Source: a virus
Lineage: Duplodnaviria; Caudoviricetes
Virus record (IMG/VR): IMGVR_UViG_3300022862_000020
Coordinates: 1 to 31,705 of that record
Direction: 5' to 3' (one strand)
DNA length: 31,705 nt
Shown here: positions 10,475-31,388 of the stretch, one piece after another
Numbering within the stretch: position 1 is the first letter of the stretch
Layout of the letters: every line of letters begins with the position of its first letter
Position numbers and translations under genes: made by a program
The notes under the pieces: generated by a model
What the model was told of the DNA's origin: nothing
Databases searched by the model: none
The model's input: the letters and a program-made list of their open reading frames with translations, nothing else

Positions 10475-11056
10475 TCACTGGAACTGCTCAAAAACGTACC
10501 GGTTATTGGAAGGAGTAGGCTTTGGATAGGCCTCCTGCCAATCACGAGCATAGGATGGGAAGCGCTCTATCGAGGCAATTTTCCAATTATCTGTCGACTT
10601 CCCTCTTTCAAGAGTGTACCGATAACGCTCGCCTGCCTCTTTGGCCTTTCTGTCAGACTCGTCCATCTCCGCACCAGGATCAGCCGGTTCGATGTTCCGG
10701 ATAACGGCACTGACAACGGCACGCGTTTCGGACTCCACATCCACCTTGGCTATCTTCCTTTCGTACGAATCCGTCACGGAGCAGTCAGTTCGAAAATGGA
10801 GAGAATCCGCTGCAAGCTCCCCGAGTTTTTCGTCCTTTGGGCCAATCATCTTCATGTATTCGGCGCAGATCTCACGATCCAGTCGGATTCCAGCATCTTT
10901 CACGGCCCACCAAGATTTCACCGCCGCATCTGGTGAGTTGGCCGCAATTTGTAAGTCCTTAATATCCTTTGTGGCTTTTGCCAGGCCAGCAGGCTTACTT
11001 TCATCTAAACAGCCAGCCAGGGATATGGCTAAAGCCACGCCTACGAACAATCTCAT
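10475..11056 (-). CDS. Lipoprotein of unknown function (193 aa)
   Basis: AGGAG RBS; MRLFVGVALAISLAGC lipobox; SPDAAVKSWW...WKIASI pattern suggests an NTF2-like fold (inference). Confidence 0.8.
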   Translation of the reverse strand: MRLFVGVALAISLAGCLDESKPAGLAKATKDIKDLQIAANSPDAAVKSWWAVKDAGIRLDREICAEYMKMIGPKDEKLGELAADSLHFRTDCSVTDSYERKIAKVDVESETRAVVSAVIRNIEPADPGAEMDESDRKAKEAGERYRYTLERGKSTDNWKIASIERFPSYARDWQEAYPKPTPSNNRYVFEQFQ

Positions 11057-19082: not shown

Positions 19083-19468
19083 TACTTACGCACCTGCAGC
19101 TCGAAGCCAACCGCCAGGCCGGCATAGTTCCAGGGGGATACGGCGATGACCGTGTAAGTGGTGCCGTCGAAGGTGATGCCGTCGTTCTCCTGAGGCGTTG
19201 GCATGTCGACGCCGCTGAGCTGAACAGGCGACACCAGCAACTTCACATCGCCCCGGACTATCAGCGTGCCGTCGATGTACTTGTCGTCGTATTCCTCGCG
19301 GAAGCCTGAGCCGTTCAGCACCAGCTCTCCAGGCGGCTGCGGGTTGTCTGGGTCGTATTCGCCCAATATCTCCCGCCGCAACACCAGCTCCAGGCCTTTG
19401 CCGCCCTTGCTGCGCGGCGCGAGCATGCGTGTGGCCATGGCCTTCGCGCGGTCATAGATATCTGGCAT
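19082..19468 (-). CDS. Head closure/stopper-like protein (128 aa)
   Basis: GEYDP, IDGTLIVRGDVKL, LQVRK; start coupled to the upstream stop. Confidence 0.75.
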   Translation of the reverse strand: MPDIYDRAKAMATRMLAPRSKGGKGLELVLRREILGEYDPDNPQPPGELVLNGSGFREEYDDKYIDGTLIVRGDVKLLVSPVQLSGVDMPTPQENDGITFDGTTYTVIAVSPWNYAGLAVGFELQVRK

Positions 19469-20508
19469 CACTTCCGCCTTATTCTGTAGATGGCCGAGCA
19501 TCGGCAGTTGGCACGCTCACTCCAGCCGGCACCCAGGCTGGAATCGCCCGGATACCGTAATAGAGCCCCGTTTGGGCTCTGGAATGGCTGGTCCTTTTGC
19601 ACTTCCTGGCCACCCATCACGGAATGGGTGTGGCGCACCTTCTTGTCGCCGCGGTCGCGCCAGGTCTTGGTGACCGAGTCACGGTCCAGGCCTTGAGCGA
19701 TCAACTGCTCGTAAACCTGGTCGCGGCCAGCACCGAATGACTCCAGCGCCTCGGCCTTCGCCAGCATCTCGGCATAGGTCTTCATCAGGCGATCAGCGTA
19801 GCGACCGGCGATCTTGTCCACGTCCGCCTGGGCGACAGGCTTTCCGGCTGAGATAGCGCGATTCACGATGCCGTCGAATCGGCGATCACGACGGGTGCGC
19901 TGGAGGTACTTGCGCATCTCGTCTGGATTCCCACCCAGCAACTGCTCGCGGGCATTGATCACAAACTGGGCATAGTTTCCAGGCAGCCCCACAACGCCGC
20001 CGGACCGAGAGCCAGTTTGCGCGCTGACCCGTCCCAGCAAATCCAGGGCCGCTTGCCGCGGGCTTCTGGTAAGCGGGGTTGCTCCAACTTCCACCTGCAC
20101 CGTTGGCGTGCCGACCACCTGCCGACGCGCCCCCATGACCGCTCGGATTGCCTCACGGACGTTCAGGTCGGCGTCCCGGCGAATCTCTTCGGTCTTAGCT
20201 GCCAGCCACTGCTCCGGCTCGGGCCTGCGAGCGTCGAACTCAAACCGACCCAAGTCCTTGGGAATCGCGACGGCCTTGATCTCGAATTTTGCCCCGGCCA
20301 GGTAGGCGTTGCGAATAAGCTCCAAAAACGCAGCCATAGCCCCCATAGCGAGCAGCGCGGCCAGGCCGTTTTCGTCTTCTTCCGCAATTAGTCGCTCAAC
20401 CTCGGAGACTGTTGCCGCACCGACCACCAGCTTGACCTGCGCCAGGTACGCCTGCTGCATCGCAGGCTCCATTCCTTCGATGGCCTGGATGATCTGCGCC
20501 GGGGTCAT
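19468..20508 (-). CDS. MuF/SPP1 gp7-like minor head protein
   Basis: C-terminal KTWRDRGDKKVRHTH...PF...LRYPGD...ERANCRC motif. Confidence 0.85.
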   Translation of the reverse strand: MTPAQIIQAIEGMEPAMQQAYLAQVKLVVGAATVSEVERLIAEEDENGLAALLAMGAMAAFLELIRNAYLAGAKFEIKAVAIPKDLGRFEFDARRPEPEQWLAAKTEEIRRDADLNVREAIRAVMGARRQVVGTPTVQVEVGATPLTRSPRQAALDLLGRVSAQTGSRSGGVVGLPGNYAQFVINAREQLLGGNPDEMRKYLQRTRRDRRFDGIVNRAISAGKPVAQADVDKIAGRYADRLMKTYAEMLAKAEALESFGAGRDQVYEQLIAQGLDRDSVTKTWRDRGDKKVRHTHSVMGGQEVQKDQPFQSPNGALLRYPGDSSLGAGWSERANCRCSAIYRIRRK

Positions 20509-21472: not shown

Positions 21473-22435
21473 TCAGGCTACTGGTGGGGTGATTTCATCG
21501 AGGTACGCCACGGCGCCCGGCAGACGAATCTCGGTACCGCCAGTGCGGGCAATGATCCCGGTTTCGAAGCCCATGATGGACTTCTGGCGCGGGGCCAGGA
21601 CGCGGCGTGGCATCGGCAGGTGGAAGCGAACCACTTCCGGGTCCTTGCGGTACGCAACCAGGCGACCACCACCGTCAGCGGAAGCGTTGCGGGCCTCGCG
21701 CAGGGGCGCGATGTCCAGCGGCTGGCCGGTCTCAGCGGTGTAGATGTTGTTCTTCCGAACGTACTCCAGCACCGTAATCATGCCGTCACCAACGCCCAAT
21801 CGCGCCGTGGCGATGTAGCGGAAGGCATCAGGCGGCAGGCGCAAGGTATCAGCCCATTCAACTTCGCCGGTGTTGGTTCGGATCGAGCCCAGCACACCGT
21901 TGATGTCGGCCATGATCTGGTCAACAGTCTTGGCGGACCAGAACGTCGAGCTGCCGGTGCCGGTGGCCGCGGCGTCCACTCGGGAAACGTTGGCGTCATT
22001 GAGCAGGCCGGTCCAGCGCTTCTCGGTGCTGCCCACGAAAGCGATGCTGTTCAGCAGGCGCTCGACCTTGTCGGCAGCGGAATCCGCCTTGGTGCCGCTC
22101 AGGTTGATGCCGTACAGCTGGGCCTGGTTCACTTCTTCCAGGTTCCATTCCCAGCCGGAGCCGATCATGGCGAAGTCGTGCGATGCCTGGTCATGGGTCG
22201 CCGAGTTGAACGGCATGTCGGTGCCAGAGCCCGACAGGAACTTCGCTTCGCCGGCGGTATCGACGGTGAAGAAGGTGGTGCCAATGGCCCACGGTGCGCC
22301 CTCGGTCACGACCGGGATGCTTGCCGCGTAGTTGAACGCCGGGTAGCGGCGCGTGTAGATGCGGGTCTCGATGTTCCGGCCCTGCGCCAGAACGAACGGA
22401 AACGCCGACTGCGCGTCTTCGAAAACTTGAGGCAT
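21473..22435 (-). CDS. Major capsid protein (DUF2184-type)
   Basis: 320 aa from MPQVFEDAQ; GLLND, LVAYRKDPEVVRFHLPMP, RTGGTEIRLPGAVAYLD. Confidence 0.88.
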   Translation of the reverse strand: MPQVFEDAQSAFPFVLAQGRNIETRIYTRRYPAFNYAASIPVVTEGAPWAIGTTFFTVDTAGEAKFLSGSGTDMPFNSATHDQASHDFAMIGSGWEWNLEEVNQAQLYGINLSGTKADSAADKVERLLNSIAFVGSTEKRWTGLLNDANVSRVDAAATGTGSSTFWSAKTVDQIMADINGVLGSIRTNTGEVEWADTLRLPPDAFRYIATARLGVGDGMITVLEYVRKNNIYTAETGQPLDIAPLREARNASADGGGRLVAYRKDPEVVRFHLPMPRRVLAPRQKSIMGFETGIIARTGGTEIRLPGAVAYLDEITPPVA

Positions 22436-22436
22436 G

Positions 22437-22916
22437 TTAAGCGCTCCGATGTTTGAGGGAGATTTCGACGATGTCGCCATTCGCACCCGTGGTGTCGAAG
22501 AAGGCGCCTGGGATCAGCACGGCACCTGCGGCGGCGGTCGTCACGTAGCGGTTGGTGGCGGCGACGTAGTACACGTCATCGCCCGGCACTACAGCGGCGC
22601 CGGCGGTGACGTACATCTGGCCGTCGGTCATGAACGCGCCAGTGAAGTCTTGCGGATAGCCATCGACGAGAGTCGAGCCGGGGGCAACTGGCGGCACCGC
22701 GGCGTTCAGCACGGCCAAGCCGAGGAACAAGGTGCCAGTGGCAGCGATCTTGTGGTCGTTGCCAGCACCCGCCACGCGGAATCCTGGAGCGCCGAACGGG
22801 ATGCCTTCAGCGCTCGAGACGGTTCGGCTGATCTTGTTGCACTTCTCTTCGTTGGCAACCAGGCCGGGCACGCCCTTGGCTGGAGCGTTGGTGTACGTGG
22901 TTTGGTAAGTAGCCAT
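22437..22916 (-). CDS. Capsid decoration/cement protein
   Basis: 159 aa between scaffold and capsid genes; GIPFG, MTDGQMYV, GDDVY motifs. Confidence 0.75.
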   Translation of the reverse strand: MATYQTTYTNAPAKGVPGLVANEEKCNKISRTVSSAEGIPFGAPGFRVAGAGNDHKIAATGTLFLGLAVLNAAVPPVAPGSTLVDGYPQDFTGAFMTDGQMYVTAGAAVVPGDDVYYVAATNRYVTTAAAGAVLIPGAFFDTTGANGDIVEISLKHRSA

Positions 22917-22927
22917 TGCTGTGCTCC

Positions 22928-24058
22928 TTATGCCTTCGGCAGGTGGGCGGTTTGCATGTCGGCAATCATCTGCAGACGCGCTTTTTCCGATTCATCGCCG
23001 ACGGTCTTGCCGTCCTGCTGAATCATGTGTTGGCGGAATGGGTCATTGCCGGGCTGCTTGGCGGCATCCTCGACCAGGATCTCAAAGCGTGCGTCGACAT
23101 ATGCATCCGCCTTGCCGGCAACAGCCGCATCACCCAGCTTGGCGATCACGACGGCCTTGCGGATCTCGGCATCGCTTTTGCCGGTGTAGTCGGCATCGGC
23201 GATGGATTTGGCCTTGGTGATCAGGTCAGCGCGGTCTTTCACGCGCTTGTCGATGTCGGCGTCACTGAGCTGCTTGGCCTTGAGGGCGTCGATCTCGGCG
23301 TCTTTCTTCGCCAGTTCGCCATCCTTCAGCGCCAGCGCAGCGGTGTGCGCGTCGGTCAGGGATTTGATGTTTACCCCGGCATCGTCCAGCTGCTTGGTCA
23401 GCTTGTCGATCGCCTGGGCGCCTTGGTCGGTCGTCTGGACGGACAGGCCATCAACGATGACCGTACGCAGTGTGTCAGCCATGTCATGGCCTCCTTTGGG
23501 GGTGTTTGGTTGGTTGTCACCGATGCGAAGCTGCTCGCCGCCCCGAGCGCGATGCTCAAGGCTGAGGTGATTCATTTTCATGGGGCCCAGGTAGCAGTCG
23601 TACTGCTCGCCGTCTGGGGAAACGCCATCCTGAAACACGACTTCGGCGCCGTAGCCCATGGACAGCTCACGCTTGCCGGCCTCGTAGTCCTCGATGGCTT
23701 TGGCATCCATCAGCACCAGGGGCACCTTGACGAACTGCCCGTCGCGCACGACTTCTCCACCGGTCTGGCCGATGGCGACGTCCTTCCAGTTCTTGGAGGT
23801 GACACCATCGCCGCCCGGGTGGCCGTTGGTCATGGGCCGGTATGCGTAGGAGTGCATCGCGTCCTTGTGAAAGACCGCGCTTTCAGGCCGGTACACACGA
23901 ACGATTGGCTTGTCGCGCAGACCGTGTTCATTGTCGGGATCGATCTCGGTGCCCAGGTAATCCTGAATGCCCGTTCGCGCTACCCGTGCTTCAGCTACCA
24001 GGTAGCCGTCCTCGGTGCGCCGTACACCCGTGATCGGCACGGAGTCGGTGAAGATCAT
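22928..24058 (-). CDS. DUF2213 protein (prohead protease-scaffold)
   Basis: RTEDGYLV...ARTGIQDY, VYRPESAVF, PMTNGHP, ELSMGY, NHLSL...RARGG; coiled-coil C-terminal half. Confidence 0.88.
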   Translation of the reverse strand: MIFTDSVPITGVRRTEDGYLVAEARVARTGIQDYLGTEIDPDNEHGLRDKPIVRVYRPESAVFHKDAMHSYAYRPMTNGHPGGDGVTSKNWKDVAIGQTGGEVVRDGQFVKVPLVLMDAKAIEDYEAGKRELSMGYGAEVVFQDGVSPDGEQYDCYLGPMKMNHLSLEHRARGGEQLRIGDNQPNTPKGGHDMADTLRTVIVDGLSVQTTDQGAQAIDKLTKQLDDAGVNIKSLTDAHTAALALKDGELAKKDAEIDALKAKQLSDADIDKRVKDRADLITKAKSIADADYTGKSDAEIRKAVVIAKLGDAAVAGKADAYVDARFEILVEDAAKQPGNDPFRQHMIQQDGKTVGDESEKARLQMIADMQTAHLPKA

Positions 24059-25851
24059 GGGGCTAGCTCCTCGAAGATCTCAGGGCCCAGCTCAATCGCG
24101 CCACGGTATGGCTCGACCTTGTCGATATCGACGCTGCCGGGATCGTAGGTGAAAGTGATGTGAGGCTGATAATCCGGCCAGTCCCACGAGGCGCCTGCCT
24201 CGACGATGGAAACGTGCCGCCATGACAGCTCGGAGCTGTTGAACAGCAGCACCACAGCGCCTTCACCGAACTTGTCGATCAGCCTTGCACCACCCGGTGC
24301 AATCTTGAGCTGCCCCTTGCCATCGCCCGACCATGACTCGCCGACCTTCATCCAATCAACCGGGTTGCGGCTGTAGGCGACGGTGACGTGTAGGTCAGCA
24401 GCAGGGACAGTTGATTCAAAGCCCTGCGACTTGGCCCACTCGATTATCTCGGCACCGTTGGCGACCTTCCTCGACACGTACAGGGTGCGCGGCGCGGCAT
24501 CGGTGACCAGTTTTTTCGGTGCTGGCGCGGATGCTGCTGATTCGGGCAAGTCCTCACCCTCCTCGCCATCGGGCATCTCGTTGCCGTACTTCTCGATGGC
24601 CGCTTCCAGGCCAGGCATGACGCTCAGCTCCACCAGCAGGTTAACTGCGGTAGCCGACAGGGCCTCTTCAGGGAACAGACCCGAATCCTTGAGAGCCTTG
24701 ATGGTGTCTGCCGTGGTCTTGCCGATGTCGGCCCTTTCCTTCGCCGTGGCCTGCCACAGTGGCGCCCAGACGTAGTGGACTTCCTTCGGCCGACTGCCCA
24801 GGGAGGATCGGATCAGGCACTCGTCCAACAGGCTCATGGCCGGCTTGATCTCAAGCTTCTGGCGTGAGGCGACGTTGTCGTAGTAGTTGCGGGTGTTCTC
24901 TTCGCCGTTGGCGCCCAGGCCCGTGGAGGACTGGCCGAACATGCGCGTGCCGGGGATATCGAACGCCCCCGCCACGCCCTGCTCAGTCTTGGCGATTACC
25001 TCGGGTAGCGTGCTGAAACTGGCCGACTTGGAACTGTGTGTCTCCAGGCCATCGAGGATCAGCGTCCCGTTGATGCCTTTGGCGGTTGCTGCCAGGCGCA
25101 GGCGCTCCAGCAACTGCCGCTCATAGTTCTTGTCCTGCATGCTGGACATGAGGTTGGGGATGTTGATCACATCGATCTTGGCCTCATAGACCAGGCTCAC
25201 TACGTTGGCGACTGTCTCGTCGTAGTGACGTACCGCGGGCATGGCAGCCAGCAGCACCGAGTCACCCCAGCCGAAACCGCAACCCAGCGCCAGCTCAGGG
25301 TCTGGATGCGGCGCGCCAATGAAGATGACCAGGCGGGACGGATGAATCTCGACCTCGCTGCCAGGGAGGCGGTAGGCCTTGGGCTTGCCGAAGCGTTCGC
25401 TTTGGGGGTCCTGCTCGATCTCGGTTGGGCTCAGTTGGCGCCGAGTCATGACGGTCAGGTACTTGATTCCACCCTTCCCCACGCGATCAGGCTTTAGCAC
25501 TGAGGCCGTGTCGCGCTCACCGGTGCCGATGAACACAGCCGCGCCACCGAACAGGCGGGCCTTCAATAGAGCCTCCAGAGTCTTGCCCTTGACGTTCAGG
25601 CGCTCCTCTTCCGCTTCGATCAGCTCGATCTGGGCTTTGTCAGCTTGCCAGTTGCGCCAGTTGCGGCAGGCGTCCACCGCCGGGATGGTCACGCCCTTCT
25701 GGGCCGTCCAGGAGCCACGGAAGGCGTTCAGCAGCTGCTGGTCGTCCATTTCTGGGGGCGCATAGTGCGAGTGTGAAGCCTTGTCGCGCGCAGTACCCAG
25801 TCCTGCGACCAGGTTCTGCAGGCTGTCTTTCAGGTAAGTGAATGCGCTCAT
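24055..25851 (-). CDS. Portal protein (DUF1073-type) fused to a C-terminal Acb1-like 2H phosphoesterase
   Basis: Portal motifs ARLFGGA, IHPSR, GWGDSVL, GAFDIPGTRMFGQS.TGL, NYYD, PLWQ; acidic/Pro linker; then about 146 aa with LHVTVAYSR and YQPHITFTY. Confidence 0.9.
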   Translation of the reverse strand: MSAFTYLKDSLQNLVAGLGTARDKASHSHYAPPEMDDQQLLNAFRGSWTAQKGVTIPAVDACRNWRNWQADKAQIELIEAEEERLNVKGKTLEALLKARLFGGAAVFIGTGERDTASVLKPDRVGKGGIKYLTVMTRRQLSPTEIEQDPQSERFGKPKAYRLPGSEVEIHPSRLVIFIGAPHPDPELALGCGFGWGDSVLLAAMPAVRHYDETVANVVSLVYEAKIDVINIPNLMSSMQDKNYERQLLERLRLAATAKGINGTLILDGLETHSSKSASFSTLPEVIAKTEQGVAGAFDIPGTRMFGQSSTGLGANGEENTRNYYDNVASRQKLEIKPAMSLLDECLIRSSLGSRPKEVHYVWAPLWQATAKERADIGKTTADTIKALKDSGLFPEEALSATAVNLLVELSVMPGLEAAIEKYGNEMPDGEEGEDLPESAASAPAPKKLVTDAAPRTLYVSRKVANGAEIIEWAKSQGFESTVPAADLHVTVAYSRNPVDWMKVGESWSGDGKGQLKIAPGGARLIDKFGEGAVVLLFNSSELSWRHVSIVEAGASWDWPDYQPHITFTYDPGSVDIDKVEPYRGAIELGPEIFEELAP

Positions 25852-27128
25852 TGTTCGCTCACGTTCGCGAGTGTGTAGCTGCCCGCAATCGGGAAGCGCT
25901 GGACAATGAAGTAGCCGAGTGCGTCGACCGGGTCTTCAGTGCCGTCCTTGTTTGGTTCGCCTTTCTCGTCGTAGGCCTGCTGCTCCAGCACCTGGGTGGT
26001 GACCGGGCAGTTGTCGGTGTTCACCAGGTAGCGGCGCTTCTGGTCGATGTTGAGAAACATGGCATTCACGGCCAGCACCCGGTCGCGGACCATGGGGTTG
26101 GACGGGTTGACCATGACCATGAAGCCGGCGGCGCGGAGCAAGCTGTGGTCTGACTCGCTGCCGTTCACGCTCTTGCGGTTCTTGCCGCTGGCGTCCGGGT
26201 AGACCGTGATGCTGTGCCCTGGGAACCGGCGCTTCAGCTCGACGATCATCGCCGGCGTATCGAATAGGCTTGTGGCCTCTTCCAGCAGCATGGGAAGGCC
26301 TTCACGAATGACGTGGATCGTTGCCGCCATCCGGTTGATGTTGAAGTCCATGCCGATGTGCAGCTGCTCGCCCGGGCGAATCGTTGCGTCGGTGTGGTTC
26401 TGCTTGCGGCAGAAGCTCGGGTACACGCTGCCGGACGTCAGGTTGACGAACAGGCCGTCGATGTACGCGTCCACCAGGTTCGCCGGGTAGGACTCGCGCA
26501 GCGACTTGATGTAGTCCTTTGGCAGATTCTTGGCGTTCTGCCGCGTGGAGGCGTGCACGATGCCGTACAGCGGGCGCTGGCTCGGATTGGAAGCAAGCTC
26601 CTTGACGAACTTGCGATACACCCAGTTGAAGCCCTCCGGCGTCGTGGTGACGTCGATGGTGTTCATGTCGCGGCCAGGCCACACCGTGGACATCCGCGCA
26701 ATGATCTTCTTCCAGGCGCTGTCGGCCTTCTTGATCGGCATACAGTCGATTTCGTCGACCAGGGCATGAGCGATGTTGAAGCCCACAATACGGTGCGGGT
26801 GCTCCATGCTCTTGCAGACGATCGTCGATAGGCACCGGCCGCGGTTGTCGCGCAGGTACACGCGCTTCTTGCTCGGCACGATGTCGGCGAACAGGCCGAA
26901 AGCCTCAGCAACCACCGGCATGGTGTCGTAGAAGATGTCGGCGATCTGCGGGTAGGTCGGAGCGAAGTAGCCCTGCGGTATGCCTGGATTCTCCAGTGCG
27001 TTGATGCAGAGCCGCACGCAGCCCACGAACGTCTTGCCGCTACGGTAGCCGCCGACGAACGCTGAAAACTTCTTGGGGTGACTGATGAACTCGAACTGCG
27101 GCCTATTGAGCTTCAGGGTCGCTTGCAT
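25848..27128 (-). CDS. terL: Terminase large subunit
   Basis: GGYRSGKT Walker A, ALVDE Walker B, TTTPEG, IGMDFN nuclease Asp, DALGY. Confidence 0.96.
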   Translation of the reverse strand: MQATLKLNRPQFEFISHPKKFSAFVGGYRSGKTFVGCVRLCINALENPGIPQGYFAPTYPQIADIFYDTMPVVAEAFGLFADIVPSKKRVYLRDNRGRCLSTIVCKSMEHPHRIVGFNIAHALVDEIDCMPIKKADSAWKKIIARMSTVWPGRDMNTIDVTTTPEGFNWVYRKFVKELASNPSQRPLYGIVHASTRQNAKNLPKDYIKSLRESYPANLVDAYIDGLFVNLTSGSVYPSFCRKQNHTDATIRPGEQLHIGMDFNINRMAATIHVIREGLPMLLEEATSLFDTPAMIVELKRRFPGHSITVYPDASGKNRKSVNGSESDHSLLRAAGFMVMVNPSNPMVRDRVLAVNAMFLNIDQKRRYLVNTDNCPVTTQVLEQQAYDEKGEPNKDGTEDPVDALGYFIVQRFPIAGSYTLANVSEQ

Positions 27129-27624
27129 CTTCTACCCCGATGATTACTTGCTTGGGCTCGGGCAGGCCCTTATTCGGGTCTTCCAGTTCGCGCTGTAGCT
27201 TCTGGATGTTCAGTCGCTTTATCTCATCGTCCAGCGACTTGTCTGGCTCTACACGGCGATTGACGTAGGCATCCCCGACTTCCTTCGCCGCCTGCTCGAG
27301 GATCTGCATTGCAAGACCGATGTTTTTCATCGACTCTGCCTTCTCCACGTACCTGCTCATGGCGCGCAGTCGATAGGCGCGATTAGCGATCGGGATGTCT
27401 ACCGTCTCCTCCCTGAACCGCTTGCGAGCATCGTGAAACATCTCCACCCAGCGCTTGGCGAGGGTCTTGCTGCATCGCTTGGTAGGGTCGTGCGATTCCA
27501 CCTGCTGGCGGCTCACTTCGACGTTGAATTCACGCTTGACGGCCTCTGCCACCTGTGAGGGTGTATCGAAGCAGGCCAACGCCTGAACGATGAAGGCCTT
27601 CACCTCGCTGCTCAGGGCTGCCAT
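27103..27624 (-). CDS. terS: Terminase small subunit (DUF2280-type)
   Basis: FIVQALACFDTPSQVAEAVK, HDPTK, IPIANRAYRL; directly upstream of terL. Confidence 0.88.
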   Translation of the reverse strand: MAALSSEVKAFIVQALACFDTPSQVAEAVKREFNVEVSRQQVESHDPTKRCSKTLAKRWVEMFHDARKRFREETVDIPIANRAYRLRAMSRYVEKAESMKNIGLAMQILEQAAKEVGDAYVNRRVEPDKSLDDEIKRLNIQKLQRELEDPNKGLPEPKQVIIGVEDASDPEAQ

Positions 27625-27655: not shown

Positions 27656-28279
27656 TCAGGCCAACTTGAGCAGACAGGTTCCGCAGGCCCTCGATACGTT
27701 GAGTTTTCCCACCTCGGCAGGACTATTTGCAGCGTCCACCAGCACCTGGACATCAGGGCTCGCACCATAGCGGCGGACCACACCGACGAACTCCTCAACG
27801 TCGTGTCCGCGCATCTCAAGCTTTGGCAGTCCTTCCTGGGTGAACTTGGGCTGGCCGTATCCATCCTTCGCCTGAGCGATGTGGTAGAGCTCATGCTCAA
27901 CCAGGGCACAGAAATCGGTATCGCTGCACTGAGCGCAGTAATCGGCGGCCAAGGTGATGATGTAGGCCGGCACATCGCCGAACCAATCTCGCATCTGCTG
28001 TTCCATCCTGGCCTTCTGCCAACCACCAGCACGGAACGCTACCTGCTCGGCCTGCCCCAGGACTGTGCGTCCCTGCTTGTTGAAGCTCGACGATGCCCAC
28101 ATCACCTGGATGTCTGCATCCAGTAGGTGGGCATGGTCTGGGTTGTGGATGCTGCCGGTGTCGGCAAGAATCTCGGCCTGTAGCCAGTCCCACACCTCAG
28201 GCGCTGGGGTAAGGCGGATACCGAAGTCGGACAGTTCGGATAACTCAAGCAGTGCTGCTGGAGGTTTTGGCCTGGTCAA
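27656..28279 (-). CDS. Putative phage metallopeptidase
   Basis: HELYH (HExxH) and HDVEEF; probable TTG start at 28279 (MTRPKPP). Confidence 0.8.
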   Translation of the reverse strand: MTRPKPPAALLELSELSDFGIRLTPAPEVWDWLQAEILADTGSIHNPDHAHLLDADIQVMWASSSFNKQGRTVLGQAEQVAFRAGGWQKARMEQQMRDWFGDVPAYIITLAADYCAQCSDTDFCALVEHELYHIAQAKDGYGQPKFTQEGLPKLEMRGHDVEEFVGVVRRYGASPDVQVLVDAANSPAEVGKLNVSRACGTCLLKLA

Positions 28280-28487
28280 TTGGAACCACCCTGATCTCGC
28301 CCCATACAGGGCGGTAGTCGATGTGCTTGCCGTCACTACTGCGCAAAGGCATATCGGCCACTACAGCTATGCCGTCCTTCGTGTCGCAGTAGGTCACACA
28401 GCCAATACGCTCACCGTCCACAAACACTTCGCGTTGCCCTCGGCCATCGTGAGCCCAGTGCACGTGCTCGCCTGATTTATCGCCCAT
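28245..28487 (-). CDS. Hypothetical protein (80 aa)
   Basis: GGAGG RBS; plausible composition; co-directional with the operon. Confidence 0.6.
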   Translation of the reverse strand: MGDKSGEHVHWAHDGRGQREVFVDGERIGCVTYCDTKDGIAVVADMPLRSSDGKHIDYRPVWGEIRVVPIDQAKTSSSTA

Positions 28488-28540: not shown

Positions 28541-28861
28541 TTACTGTTTCTTGTCGCAGCCCATGCAGTCCTCACAATGCATCGTCCGGCACAGCCAGGC
28601 TCTCACCCTTGCCCACCAGATGACCATGAAGATGTGGCGCAGTCCTGCGAGGGCCAGGGCCATGTGCAGCGTCAGGCCCGCGGTGGTTGGACCGAAGAAG
28701 ACGTTCTGACTGCGGGTCATCACAACGAACCCGCTGATGGCGACCGTCGAATAGATCAGCTTGCCGAGGATGCCGTCTCGCACCCGACCACTGAGGACAC
28801 ACCAGGTCGCCCACAATGCGATCAGGCCGCAGGCGATGGAGTTGATCAGTTCAAGATTCAT
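28541..28861 (-). CDS. Three-TM membrane protein, holin/antiholin-like
   Basis: Three hydrophobic segments; start coupled to the upstream gene (ATGA). Confidence 0.65.
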   Translation of the reverse strand: MNLELINSIACGLIALWATWCVLSGRVRDGILGKLIYSTVAISGFVVMTRSQNVFFGPTTAGLTLHMALALAGLRHIFMVIWWARVRAWLCRTMHCEDCMGCDKKQ

Positions 28862-29196
28862 GGTGGATTGCCTCCCCCGAACCGCTGGCGGATAAGCGCC
28901 CAGAGGTCAGCGGCTTTGATTGCTCGGTTGATGGCGGCCAGAAGTGAACCGCCGAAGGTGCCCAGCAGGAAGCCGATACCGGCAACGATCTTTGGCTCGG
29001 TGACGTTCAGGTAGGCGCTGACCATACTCGTCAGGTACAGCGAGCAGGCCACCCCGGTTATCAAGAACACCATCCAGGCACGCCAGTCGGACAAGTCGTC
29101 CTTGTGCCACCAGCTCGCGACAACGGCACCAATGAGGCCCGCAATAAACAACTCGAACCTGTCGATCTTGTCGAGCAGGCGCTGTAGGTACTCCAT
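28858..29196 (-). CDS. Putative holin (112 aa)
   Basis: GGAG RBS; MEYLQRLLDK start; three TM segments; GFLLGTFGGSL; first gene of the structural operon. Confidence 0.7.
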   Translation of the reverse strand: MEYLQRLLDKIDRFELFIAGLIGAVVASWWHKDDLSDWRAWMVFLITGVACSLYLTSMVSAYLNVTEPKIVAGIGFLLGTFGGSLLAAINRAIKAADLWALIRQRFGGGNPP

Positions 29197-29223
29197 GCGC
29201 TCGACTCCGGCTGTGCATGATTG

Positions 29224-29248
29224 AAGAAAAGGGCCGGTGTGAGCGGCC
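29224..29248 (-). terminator. Intrinsic terminator upstream of the holin
   Basis: Minus strand GGCCG-CTCACAC-CGGCC-CTTTTCTT. Confidence 0.55.
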
Positions 29249-29372
29249 AAACGCTGGGGAGCAGCGGCGAATAGATCAGCCCCGGCGCGCACTCCCAGCT
29301 CGGGGCAATGGGTGTGGCGGGGCTGAAAACTTGAAACCTGGTATCCGTGGGCCTAAAAAGGGCCTCTTAAAT

Positions 29373-30243: not shown

Positions 30244-30438
30244 TGTAAGGGTCTTTCCCCTCCGTCCGCCGAAGGCTATCACGGCGTCGACGCCCCAATG
30301 CATCGATCTCGCCGCTCAAGTCTCGCTCCCCCCTGCGTCAGATGGTTGGTCGGGGTGCGCGGGCTGCCGGTGTTGTTTCCGTACGTCGCACTGCCGGCTA
30401 TCGACGTCCAGGCCTTCCCGAAGGCTGTCCTGGCTACA
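30244..30438 (-). ncRNA. Candidate ~195-nt structured RNA
   Basis: Multiple stems (UGUAG/UUACA, CCAGG/CCUGG, GCCUUC/GAAGGC, GCCGG/CCGGC, CGCCG/CGGCG, GAGGG/CCCUU); no credible ORF. Confidence 0.45.
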
Positions 30439-30452
30439 GGCAAATATGAGGC

Positions 30453-30504
30453 AATAAAAAACCCGCACAGGGCGGGCTTAAAAATAACCCCGCACTTGGC
30501 GGGG
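30453..30504 (-). terminator. Two tandem intrinsic terminators (tR'-like)
   Basis: Minus strand CCCCGC-CAAGT-GCGGGG-TTATTTTT, then CCCGC-CCTGT-GCGGG-TTTTTTATT. Confidence 0.75.
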
Positions 30505-30516
30505 CTTGGTGAGCTG

Positions 30517-30771
30517 CTAGGCTCGAATCAGACCGGCAATGATGAGGCTGGAGACGAGACCGGCACCGGTAGCGTGAATCGTGTTGAGAAACGCCAAATC
30601 GGTTTTTTTCACCATCTCGTTATCCTCCTTCGTAGTCGAGGCCGCTACGGTCGGCTCTTGCACCTTGAGATACAGCATGTATACAGCCACCAATGCCATG
30701 ATTCCAACGGTGCCGGCTACGACTCCAGCCACAACAACGGATGCCGCTGCTCCAGGGAGAAATTTTGTCAA
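30517..30771 (-). CDS. Small two-TM membrane protein (84 aa)
   Basis: TTG start with a poor RBS; two hydrophobic segments; fills the gap between the putative late promoter and the terminators. Confidence 0.5.
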   Translation of the reverse strand: MTKFLPGAAASVVVAGVVAGTVGIMALVAVYMLYLKVQEPTVAASTTKEDNEMVKKTDLAFLNTIHATGAGLVSSLIIAGLIRA

Positions 30772-30800
30772 TCCGCAACGCGCAAGATCGACAGGATGGA

Positions 30801-30832
30801 TAAATACTCTCTCACTTTCTCACTCATTGCAA
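30801..30832 (-). promoter_or_regulatory. Putative late promoter (pR'-like) with a direct repeat in the spacer
   Basis: Minus strand TTGCAA-TGAGTGAGAAAGTGAGA-GAGTAT(TTA), right after the Q-position gene; AGTGAGAA/AGTGAGAG tandem repeat; the -10 is weak. Confidence 0.5.
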
Positions 30833-30842
30833 TGGCTTTTTG

Positions 30843-31388
30843 CTACGCCGCGCAACTTTCGATCAAACCCTCTGTATCCAGCAGTTCCTGGGCAGCGAGC
30901 AGTGCTTCGTTTACCTGGTTATCGAGCGCCTTACGGATGTTCGAGCGCCACCGGTACCGGGTCGACTCTGGTTTACCGTCATTGTCCCAATTGGTGATGT
31001 CATACCAGGCTGCCGGCAGGACGGTCGCATAGCGCTTGCCCTCGGCGCCGGCCACCTGCGGAATTGCCCAAGTCAGGATCGCACACTCGCGGAACCGCTG
31101 CGGCGCCGGCGACTTCACCGAGTTCAGCAGCTCAAGGATTGCACCATGCTTGCGCTCGTCGTGGGTCGAGTACTTCGCCACCAGCGCCCGCCAGTGCGCC
31201 GGAGTCAGCGTCTTGTGCAGTCGGCCGAAGACCCAACAGTCCATGAGAAACGCAGCCTCTTTGCCGACGATTTCCCCCTTCTGCTTGGCGCACTGGACCT
31301 TGGGCTCGAAATCACAGCCGCCGGCAGAGTTGATGGTCTCAGCGGCCAGGGCCCGGACCACTGCGGAAATCACGTTGCGATAGATCAT
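30843..31388 (-). CDS. Late-gene regulator (Q-position antiterminator-like)
   Basis: 181 aa immediately after ninG and before the late operon; C-terminal KPESTRYRWR HTH-like segment. Function inferred from synteny. Confidence 0.6.
   Translation of the reverse strand: MIYRNVISAVVRALAAETINSAGGCDFEPKVQCAKQKGEIVGKEAAFLMDCWVFGRLHKTLTPAHWRALVAKYSTHDERKHGAILELLNSVKSPAPQRFRECAILTWAIPQVAGAEGKRYATVLPAAWYDITNWDNDGKPESTRYRWRSNIRKALDNQVNEALLAAQELLDTEGLIESCAA

Follow-up and report, generated by a model that had tools for sequence, protein, structure and literature searches.

Here we analyzed a DNA stretch of 31,705 nucleotides (virus record IMGVR_UViG_3300022862_000020; hereafter, the window), in which one open reading frame (ORF) encodes a phage portal protein followed by a 2H phosphodiesterase domain of Acb1, a family named for counteracting CBASS, the antiphage signaling system that relies on cyclic oligonucleotides. 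The two parts meet at an Asp-Ala pair, the same motif that marks the sites at which the other proteins of the head appear to be processed, as judged from where capsid models start. Since the junction residues match mature capsid starts, we propose that the DUF2213 head maturation protease encoded by the neighboring gene quite probably frees a 16 kDa enzyme by cutting between Asp451 and Ala452.

The conserved Asp-Ala pair opens the 2H domain at 24501-24496, just outside the interval (24055..24495) that the initial annotation had assigned to the domain, and was missed there, as was the lack of a Trp lid described below. Among 178 portal-fused sequences, the dipeptide at the junction was DA in 176, DS in one, and NA in one, compared with 11/178 and 50/178 for the motif in upstream control windows; after clustering at 80%, the numbers were 25/25 versus 4 and 3. 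Junction residues were also counted by carrier in 142 of the top 150 representatives (50% clustering; the 8 excluded had been examined previously). The carriers were a PF06381 portal (100), an XkdF protease or ChaB (11), an HK97-type portal (5), DUF2213 (4), an S78 protease (1), and a Mu portal (1), with none found for 20, such that every recognizable carrier is a head protein or ChaB. PF06381 carriers showed D-[A/S] in 95 of 100, N-A in 2, Asp ahead of V, G, or M in 3, and K-[A/S] in none (D-[A/S] in upstream control windows: 11, 5, and 3 of 100), and three of the four DUF2213 carriers also had D-[A/S]. K-[A/S] was the rule for HK97 portals (4/5, the fifth being R-A), XkdF/ChaB (10/11), and the Mu portal (1/1).

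The same division was seen at the level of loci, for which 170 of 172 ORFs were parsed and some contigs are duplicated: D-[A/S] occurred at 147/147 PF06381-type loci and K-[A/S] at 13/13 HK97-type loci, or 28/28 versus 9/9 after clustering at 75%. The K loci carry K-[A/S] also at the capsid delta boundary (8/8) and at the portal N terminus (8/9), and at locus L102 an S78 protease and an HK97 capsid adjoin the fusion. On a tree of 124 domains, from which the junction motif was excluded and 20 carrier-less proteins were left out, we counted roughly 10 switches of head system and, under a relaxed motif rule, roughly 9 of the motif. Free-standing 2H forms that start with their own Met mostly have no junction motif. 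Where fusions have extra domains at the C terminus, several contain another Asp or Lys motif past the lid (read by eye, uncounted).

Capsid starts serve as the anchors for this comparison. The mature capsid chain of HK97 begins at Ser104, after Lys103. Phage T1 possesses the three head families of the window (PF06381/DUF2213/PF09950); its capsid model begins at residue 27 (PMC11945409), residue 26 is Asp, and T1 Asp26-Ala27 is aligned with Asp7-Ala8 of the window capsid. The PB1 capsid has Asp64-Ser65, and the E217 and Pa193 capsids were modeled from residue 66 (PMC10329688, PMC11456595). Similar pairs are present near the N termini of the window portal, where Asp9 is invariant in 53/53 aligned portals, and of the DUF2213 protease (Asp5-Ser6). 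A cut at Asp451 is predicted to yield a 16.1 kDa enzyme and, provided that Asp9 is cut too, a portal of 47.9 kDa. As for the cleavage specificity of DUF2213, nothing was found in the part of the literature searched.

The portal half is a PF06381/HI1409 portal, with profile, fold, and position after terminase all fitting: the TIGR01555 score is 249 bits (cutoff, 196), and the top Foldseek match of its model is the portal of cyanophage Pam3 (8HDS, E 4e-34). PHROG_146, a portal profile, spans amino acids (aa) 6 to 593 of the fusion ORF. For the second half, Pfam PF23474 (Acb1) matches aa 455 to 596 with E 1.3e-44 and 151.9 bits, against a curated cutoff of 27, which bears out the earlier view of a portal and an Acb1-like domain in one uninterrupted ORF. 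A frameshift or mis-joined ORF was ruled out, since there is one open frame and the same architecture recurs across 1,939 proteins, as well as in phages that have been cultured. An internal translation start that would free the 2H domain was also ruled out, since a start with a strong Shine-Dalgarno sequence was present there in 1/58 relatives, compared with 0 to 4 of 58 in control windows; an in-frame TTG behind AGGAGG is present in the linker of the window's gene. This linker is acidic and Pro-rich, as originally described, and differs in sequence among relatives. AlphaFold2 predicted it to be disordered, while the 2H domain was modeled confidently, with a predicted local distance difference test (pLDDT) score of 95.

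By profile, sequence, and fold, the domain belongs to the Acb1 family. It is 33% identical to Acb1 of Erwinia phage FBB1 (E 1e-19), which served as the reference for motif comparison instead of the T4 sequence itself. The initial annotation had suggested a structural comparison with Acb1 and had weighed a closer kinship to LigT-like 2H enzymes. Acb1 (7T27) was the top structural match of the domain model (Z 16.1, root mean square deviation 2.0, 130 aligned residues) and rank 1 in Foldseek (TM 0.71/0.76), followed by the phage enzyme PDE-9 (Z 14.1) and LigT-type 4QAK (Z 10.5; LigT TM 0.56). Assignment to LigT/2'-5' RNA ligase (PF02834, PF13563) was rejected, as no LigT profile matched at E 0.001 and the fold similarity lies below that of Acb1. 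Both HxT motifs lie intact at precisely the positions first reported (Table 1), completing the catalytic tetrad. The residues equivalent to base-stacking Y12 and F107 and to adenine-contacting E141 of T4 Acb1 are Y458, W556, and E594 (T4 F107 corresponds to FBB1 Y108, and T4 E141 to FBB1 E142). In 282 unique homologues, conservation was 281 for H44, 281 for T46, 281 for H114, 282 for T/S116, 276 for Y12, and 222 for E142. One match from Roseobacter phage DSS3P8, named "prohead protease," was discarded as a free-standing 150-aa 2H protein and not a fusion. Acb1 does not act on cyclic tetra-adenylate (PMC9117128), so a role against type III CRISPR, which had been entertained, would be limited.

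The window protein stops four residues after E594, and the C-terminal lid bearing W147 in T4 is thus missing; the domain is best filed as a lidless variant of the Acb1 family, not as a canonical Acb1. A Trp 3 to 10 residues past the E141 equivalent was present in 138 of the 282 homologues, and a tail as short as that of the window in 111. Diverse PF06381-fused representatives had the Trp in 69/100, a short tail in 6, and another ending in 21, with 4 unscored. Short tails are seen repeatedly, in separate branches of the tree, and lidded relatives (L038, L042, L047, and L048) have domains 86 to 90% identical to that of the window. The lidless domain is under purifying selection: its pairwise ratio of nonsynonymous to synonymous substitution rates (dN/dS) against the window had a median of 0.083 and a range of 0.055 to 0.151 in 29 lidless relatives, which are not independent (portal, 0.065), and both HxT/S motifs were kept in 52/52 short-tailed domains. 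PDE-9 stripped of its lid still degraded 3'3'-cyclic GMP-AMP (3'3'-cGAMP) over an hour and lost a weaker substrate, and the core, not the lid, was found to determine specificity (10.1101/2025.08.21.671373). With its lid gone, the window copy may be slower than T4 Acb1 or narrower in substrate range, and we consider it rather likely that it acts on some cyclic oligonucleotide in such a weaker or narrower manner. Its anti-CBASS activity is less certain than had been assumed, because of the missing lid. Escape of the lidless copy from Panoptes is speculation, and the natural lidded and lidless pairs at 86 to 90% identity provide a ready test of how the lid might balance substrate breadth against detection by Panoptes.

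We propose the following course of events. The portal would act as an address tag that places up to 12 Acb1-family enzymes inside the prohead; the DUF2213 protease would cut them free there; the freed enzyme would be retained in the head and ejected with the DNA into the next cell, where it would degrade immune signals made of cyclic di- or trinucleotides. We give this mechanism as a whole an even chance, and retention plus ejection, once the cut is granted, slightly better than that. The crown and barrel formed by the portal C terminus point into the capsid interior (PMC9942802, PMC11456595, PMC11945409), the compartment in which the protease acts, and T4 internal protein IPI and Alt are processed by gp21 and then ejected (PMC9026906). 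The virion portal of Pam3 was modeled for 442 of 621 residues (8HDS), leaving its 2H domain unmodeled, and 8HDS was not among the listed structural matches of the 2H domain model; portal residues 529 to 765 of Pa193 are described as having no density (PMC11456595). Peptide-level virion data were not found in the Pam3 or Pa193 supplements (one Pa193 file excluded), the Pam3 portal being positive in mass spectrometry at the protein level at most, with no peptide map found there. The initial annotation had pictured 12 enzymes tied to the portal ring, a picture that probably does not hold for mature heads, given the junction's resemblance to a head-protease site and the unmodeled Pam3 domain.

Several points weigh against this proposal. 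The 13 HK97-type loci form a single clade (support, 0.978), and the wider domain tree is weakly supported. The junction motif is short and loosely defined, because the residue after Asp varies at other candidate sites; there, D-[A/S] was present at 11/28 portal N termini, in 14/25 proteases, and in 8/20 capsid windows, the last with an imprecise offset. For the XkdF and Mu-type proteases, a specificity for Lys is putative. Boundaries of cryo-electron microscopy models are indirect, and missing density fits disorder equally well; the authors of the E217 and Pa193 structures allow for either cleavage or disorder (PMC10329688, PMC11456595). The alignment column of F/W74 reads I/V/M/L, being shifted by an insertion, with F528 nearby. 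The window copy is devoid of the lid (T4 residues 145 to 152), and T4 Acb1 without it did not trigger Panoptes, which was read as lost catalysis; two structural groups of phage 2H proteins were inactive on all 18 signals in that study, as far as its available text goes (10.1101/2025.08.21.671373). CBASS activation comes late in T4 infection (10.64898/2026.03.04.709575), and 12 injected copies may be of little weight when CBASS fires late. The cut, the activity, the retention, and the ejection are all steps that we infer.

The main alternative, which we regard as unlikely, is that the enzyme acts in the producing cell. Made together with the portal from the late operon, it would degrade CBASS signals elicited by head morphogenesis, either while part of a portal that is not yet assembled or once it has been cut off and has exited the prohead, with the cut mainly clearing the portal channel. 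In T4, a CBASS is activated late in infection by the prohead protease (10.64898/2026.03.04.709575), the fusion gene directly precedes the protease gene, and the same domain is also fused to DUF2213, S78, and XkdF proteases; the junction motif fits this account too. However, the portal is a low-copy protein whose tail points into the prohead and not toward signals in the cytoplasm, more enzyme would come from a free late gene, and the ADP-ribosyltransferase, PBECR, and InPase that these portals also carry as cargo look like ejected proteins. Permanent tethering, with twelve Acb1 domains on the portal ring and Asp-Ala as the mere N-terminal edge of the domain, is quite improbable, in that Asp at the junction repeatedly gives way to Lys when the head-protease system changes, the motif is missing from free-standing forms, and a tethered enzyme would be left outside the cell with the emptied head. 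What speaks for it is that the cut is one we infer, that the Asp-Ala motif falls within a region predicted at fair confidence, and that a flexible tether accounts for the missing density.

The substrate could also be something else, such as RNA 2',3'-cyclic ends or another RNase target or an unidentified signal, or the domain could be a low-turnover signal binder. The missing lid would suit this possibility, as would the weak LigT/2'-5' ligase profile matches of some homologues, the two inactive structural groups of phage 2H proteins (10.1101/2025.08.21.671373), and the fact that RNase came first among the roles put forward for portal-fused 2H domains in 2017 (PMC5512222). We nevertheless judge it improbable: the nearest folds, Acb1 and then PDE-9, both cleave cGAMP, with LigT well lower; the equivalents of Y12, F/Y107 (W556), and E141 (E594) are retained; the core sets specificity, as seen with lidless PDE-9 on 3'3'-cGAMP (10.1101/2025.08.21.671373); and an RNA ligase was not found by Pfam among the 38 window ORFs scanned. 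Decay of the lidless copy into a functionless remnant, to which the lost lid and the absence of the domain from the portal at 4/15 genome loci might point, has a negligible probability and was rejected on dN/dS and on the retention of both HxT/S motifs in short-tailed domains. Release in the prohead and delivery with the DNA remains the reading that we prefer.

The fusion as such is ordinary, being already known from databases, cultured phages, and print, and its novelty had been overrated. The domain was matched in 1,939 of 2,963 candidate proteins of 328 to 1,047 aa, a profile search gave 3,885 representatives at 50% clustering, and all 120 matches listed contain PF06381 and PF23474, many under the name "anti-CBASS protein Acb1 family protein"; in P0011, P0021, and similar entries, this name is borne by a whole 600-aa portal. 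Cultured carriers include phiPSA1, psageB2, psageK9, MR15 (domain 90% identical to that of the window), Rhizobium RHEph04-06, HMSP1-Susan, Erebus, and Pam3. The 2H cassette is dispensable to the architecture and is exchanged among portals: among the loci devoid of it, L005, L007, and L008 have portals 95 to 97% identical to that of domain-bearing L006; L002 and L006 share domains at 93% and portals at 61% identity; and L002 and the window share portals at 87% and domains at 69%. Extra cargo on Acb1-bearing head proteins (P0108, P0268, P0275, P0343, P0353, P0362, P0380, P0383, and P0272) comprises PBECR3, Zeta toxin, ADP-ribosyltransferase, Nudix, and pyridine nucleotide oxidoreductase domains. 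PB1-like portals bear InPase in place of the 2H domain; in phage PB1 itself (L100, 4112-11366), the InPase tail of the PF06381 portal is preceded by Asp-Asp-Ala motifs, and Ala-Met-Asp-Ser occurs in the portal (76), the protease (400), and the capsid (64).

2H domains joined to MuF or portal proteins were described in 2017, with an RNase role as the first option and a signal-degrading role as the other (PMC5512222), and in 2022 such fusions were taken to suggest packaging and injection against oligonucleotide signaling (PMC9503650). Packaging and delivery of portal-fused 2H domains is thus a plausible idea previously proposed in print (PMC5512222, PMC9503650). A bioRxiv survey of 2H proteins has 13 multidomain members, which may include portal fusions, and the word "portal" is absent from the text and 9 supplement files of Hobbs 2022 (PMC9117128). 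An experimental test of the fusion or a description of a release site was not found among the listed matches of a full-text search, which left subscription papers mostly outside. What goes further than prior work is a junction release site tied to protease class, together with the lid variation.

Characterized Acb1 enzymes are free proteins produced in the course of infection. Should the copies borne by portals be cut and ejected, the phage would disarm nucleotide-signal immunity from entry onward. The junction motif turns the delivery prediction of 2017 and 2022 into single-residue experiments, suggests a specificity for DUF2213, a very common unnamed protease family (T1, PB1-like phages, and Pam3), and lets processed cargo be recognized from sequence. 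A broader version, which we consider rather doubtful, is that portals are a general loading dock: Acb1 cassettes would hop between unrelated head systems, each time gaining the cut site of the resident protease (Asp with DUF2213, Lys with HK97/XkdF), free enzyme in a counted dose would be ejected with the genome and pre-empt nucleotide immunity, and repeated lid loss would tune the enzyme so that it cuts the signals of CBASS and spares the decoy signal of Panoptes. If true, this would provide an anti-CBASS enzyme delivered by the virion and would identify DUF2213 as a head protease specific for Asp.

Table 1. Fusion ORF, its parts, and the neighboring head genes in the window
Feature	Position	Strand	Basis
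Portal-Acb1 fusion ORF, 598 aa (P0001)	24055..25851	-	single frame without internal stop
PF06381 portal domain, aa 38-385	24697..25740	-	Pfam E 1.2e-90
Asp9-Ser10 near portal N terminus, candidate propeptide cut site	25822..25827	-	predicted cut
Disordered acidic/Pro linker, aa 425-450	24502..24579	-	pLDDT <50
Asp451-Ala452 junction, candidate site of release by the DUF2213 protease	24496..24501	-	predicted cut
2H phosphodiesterase domain of the Acb1 family, aa 452-598, 16.1 kDa, without C-terminal Trp lid	24058..24498	-	
First HxT motif, H488-V-T490 (FBB1 H44, T46)	24382..24390	-	
Second HxT motif, H564-I-T566 (FBB1 H114, T116)	24154..24162	-	
DUF2213 head maturation protease/scaffold	22928..24058	-	PF09979 E 4e-45; PHROG_530 head maturation protease E 2.8e-103
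Cement protein	22437..22916	-	PF22758
Major capsid protein, Asp7-Ala8	21473..22435	-	PF09950
Terminase large subunit	25848..27128	-	PF03237, PF17289
DUF2280, terminase small subunit position	27103..27624	-	PF10045; role suggested by gene order

The window is a segment of a temperate-type phage with an integrase (345-1529), lysis genes, and lambda-like tail and head genes; among named sequences, it is most closely related to Pseudomonas prophages and phages. The start codon of the protease gene overlaps the stop codon of the fusion (ATGA). Across relatives, the gap between the two genes ranges from -3 to >3,000 bases, and because it is so variable, it is a hot spot for accessory genes; at L004 (4821-6452), additional genes lie between fusion and protease. 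Near aa 193 of the DUF2213 gene (22928-24058, -), right past the protease domain, a Met stands behind a GGAGG-like stretch and may start a nested scaffold protein, and several Asp-Ala/Asp-Gly motifs follow downstream of it. A MuF-type head morphogenesis gene (19468-20508, -) is located past the capsid and adaptor genes, while in Pam3 and T1 it follows the portal. Just ahead of the terminase genes lies a PhageMetallopep (PF18894) gene (27656-28336, -), labeled "transposase" by PHROG_513. The gene of the lysis enzyme (2539-2964, -), a Hydrolase_2 (PF07486) directed at the cell wall, lies at the tail end next to an Rz gene, and two holin genes (28541-29292) are found apart from it. A 244-aa ORF at 30298-31032 (+), opposite the late genes and without a Pfam, PHROG, or PADLOC match, is possibly a moron or a shadow ORF, the latter being considered because it overlaps 30843-31388 (-), a PHROG_3412 match. 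A 193-aa ORF among the tail-tip genes (10475-11056, -), also without a Pfam, PHROG, or PADLOC match, is a candidate accessory gene. PADLOC matched none of the 10 orphan ORFs of the window.

Compared with Acb1 of T4 (gp57B) and FBB1 (7T26/7T27; PF23474; PMC9117128), the window domain shares the 2H fold, the HxT/HxT tetrad, and the equivalents of Y12, F/Y107, and E141. It differs in standing behind a portal in the head operon of a temperate-type Pseudomonas-like phage, in having an additional Trp-bearing loop and no C-terminal lid or W147 equivalent, and in that its activity is predicted. PDE-9 of Burkholderia phage BCSR5 (9Q2Y/9Q2G; 10.1101/2025.08.21.671373) belongs to the same structural group and shows that the lid is modular and that its core, deprived of the lid, still cuts 3'3'-cGAMP; unlike the window domain, it is free-standing with an N-terminal lid, at 17 to 20% identity. 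The polyvalent head proteins of Iyer, in which 2H domains are fused to portal or MuF proteins (PMC5512222, PMC9503650), have the same architecture, with the 2H domain and portal in one polypeptide within the head gene module, and come with the same proposal of packaging, injection, and counter-signaling; the release site, the link to protease class, and the lid variation are added here to what the available text of those accounts holds. Portal gp3 of cyanophage Pam3 (8HDS; PMC9942802) is the same full-length fusion (E 8e-165) and shares the Thr-Asp-Ala junction and a DUF2213 protease in the head module, although it keeps a Trp lid-like tail and has HIS (Ser) as its second motif; the extra domain is not discussed in the available part of that account. 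T4 IPI and Alt (PMC9026906) offer a precedent for the proposed route, as anti-defense cargo that is sent to the prohead, where the head protease cuts it, and that is delivered with the DNA. They employ a short targeting propeptide, hundreds of copies, and a cut after Glu, whereas the window would use a portal as carrier, at most 12 copies, and a predicted cut after Asp.

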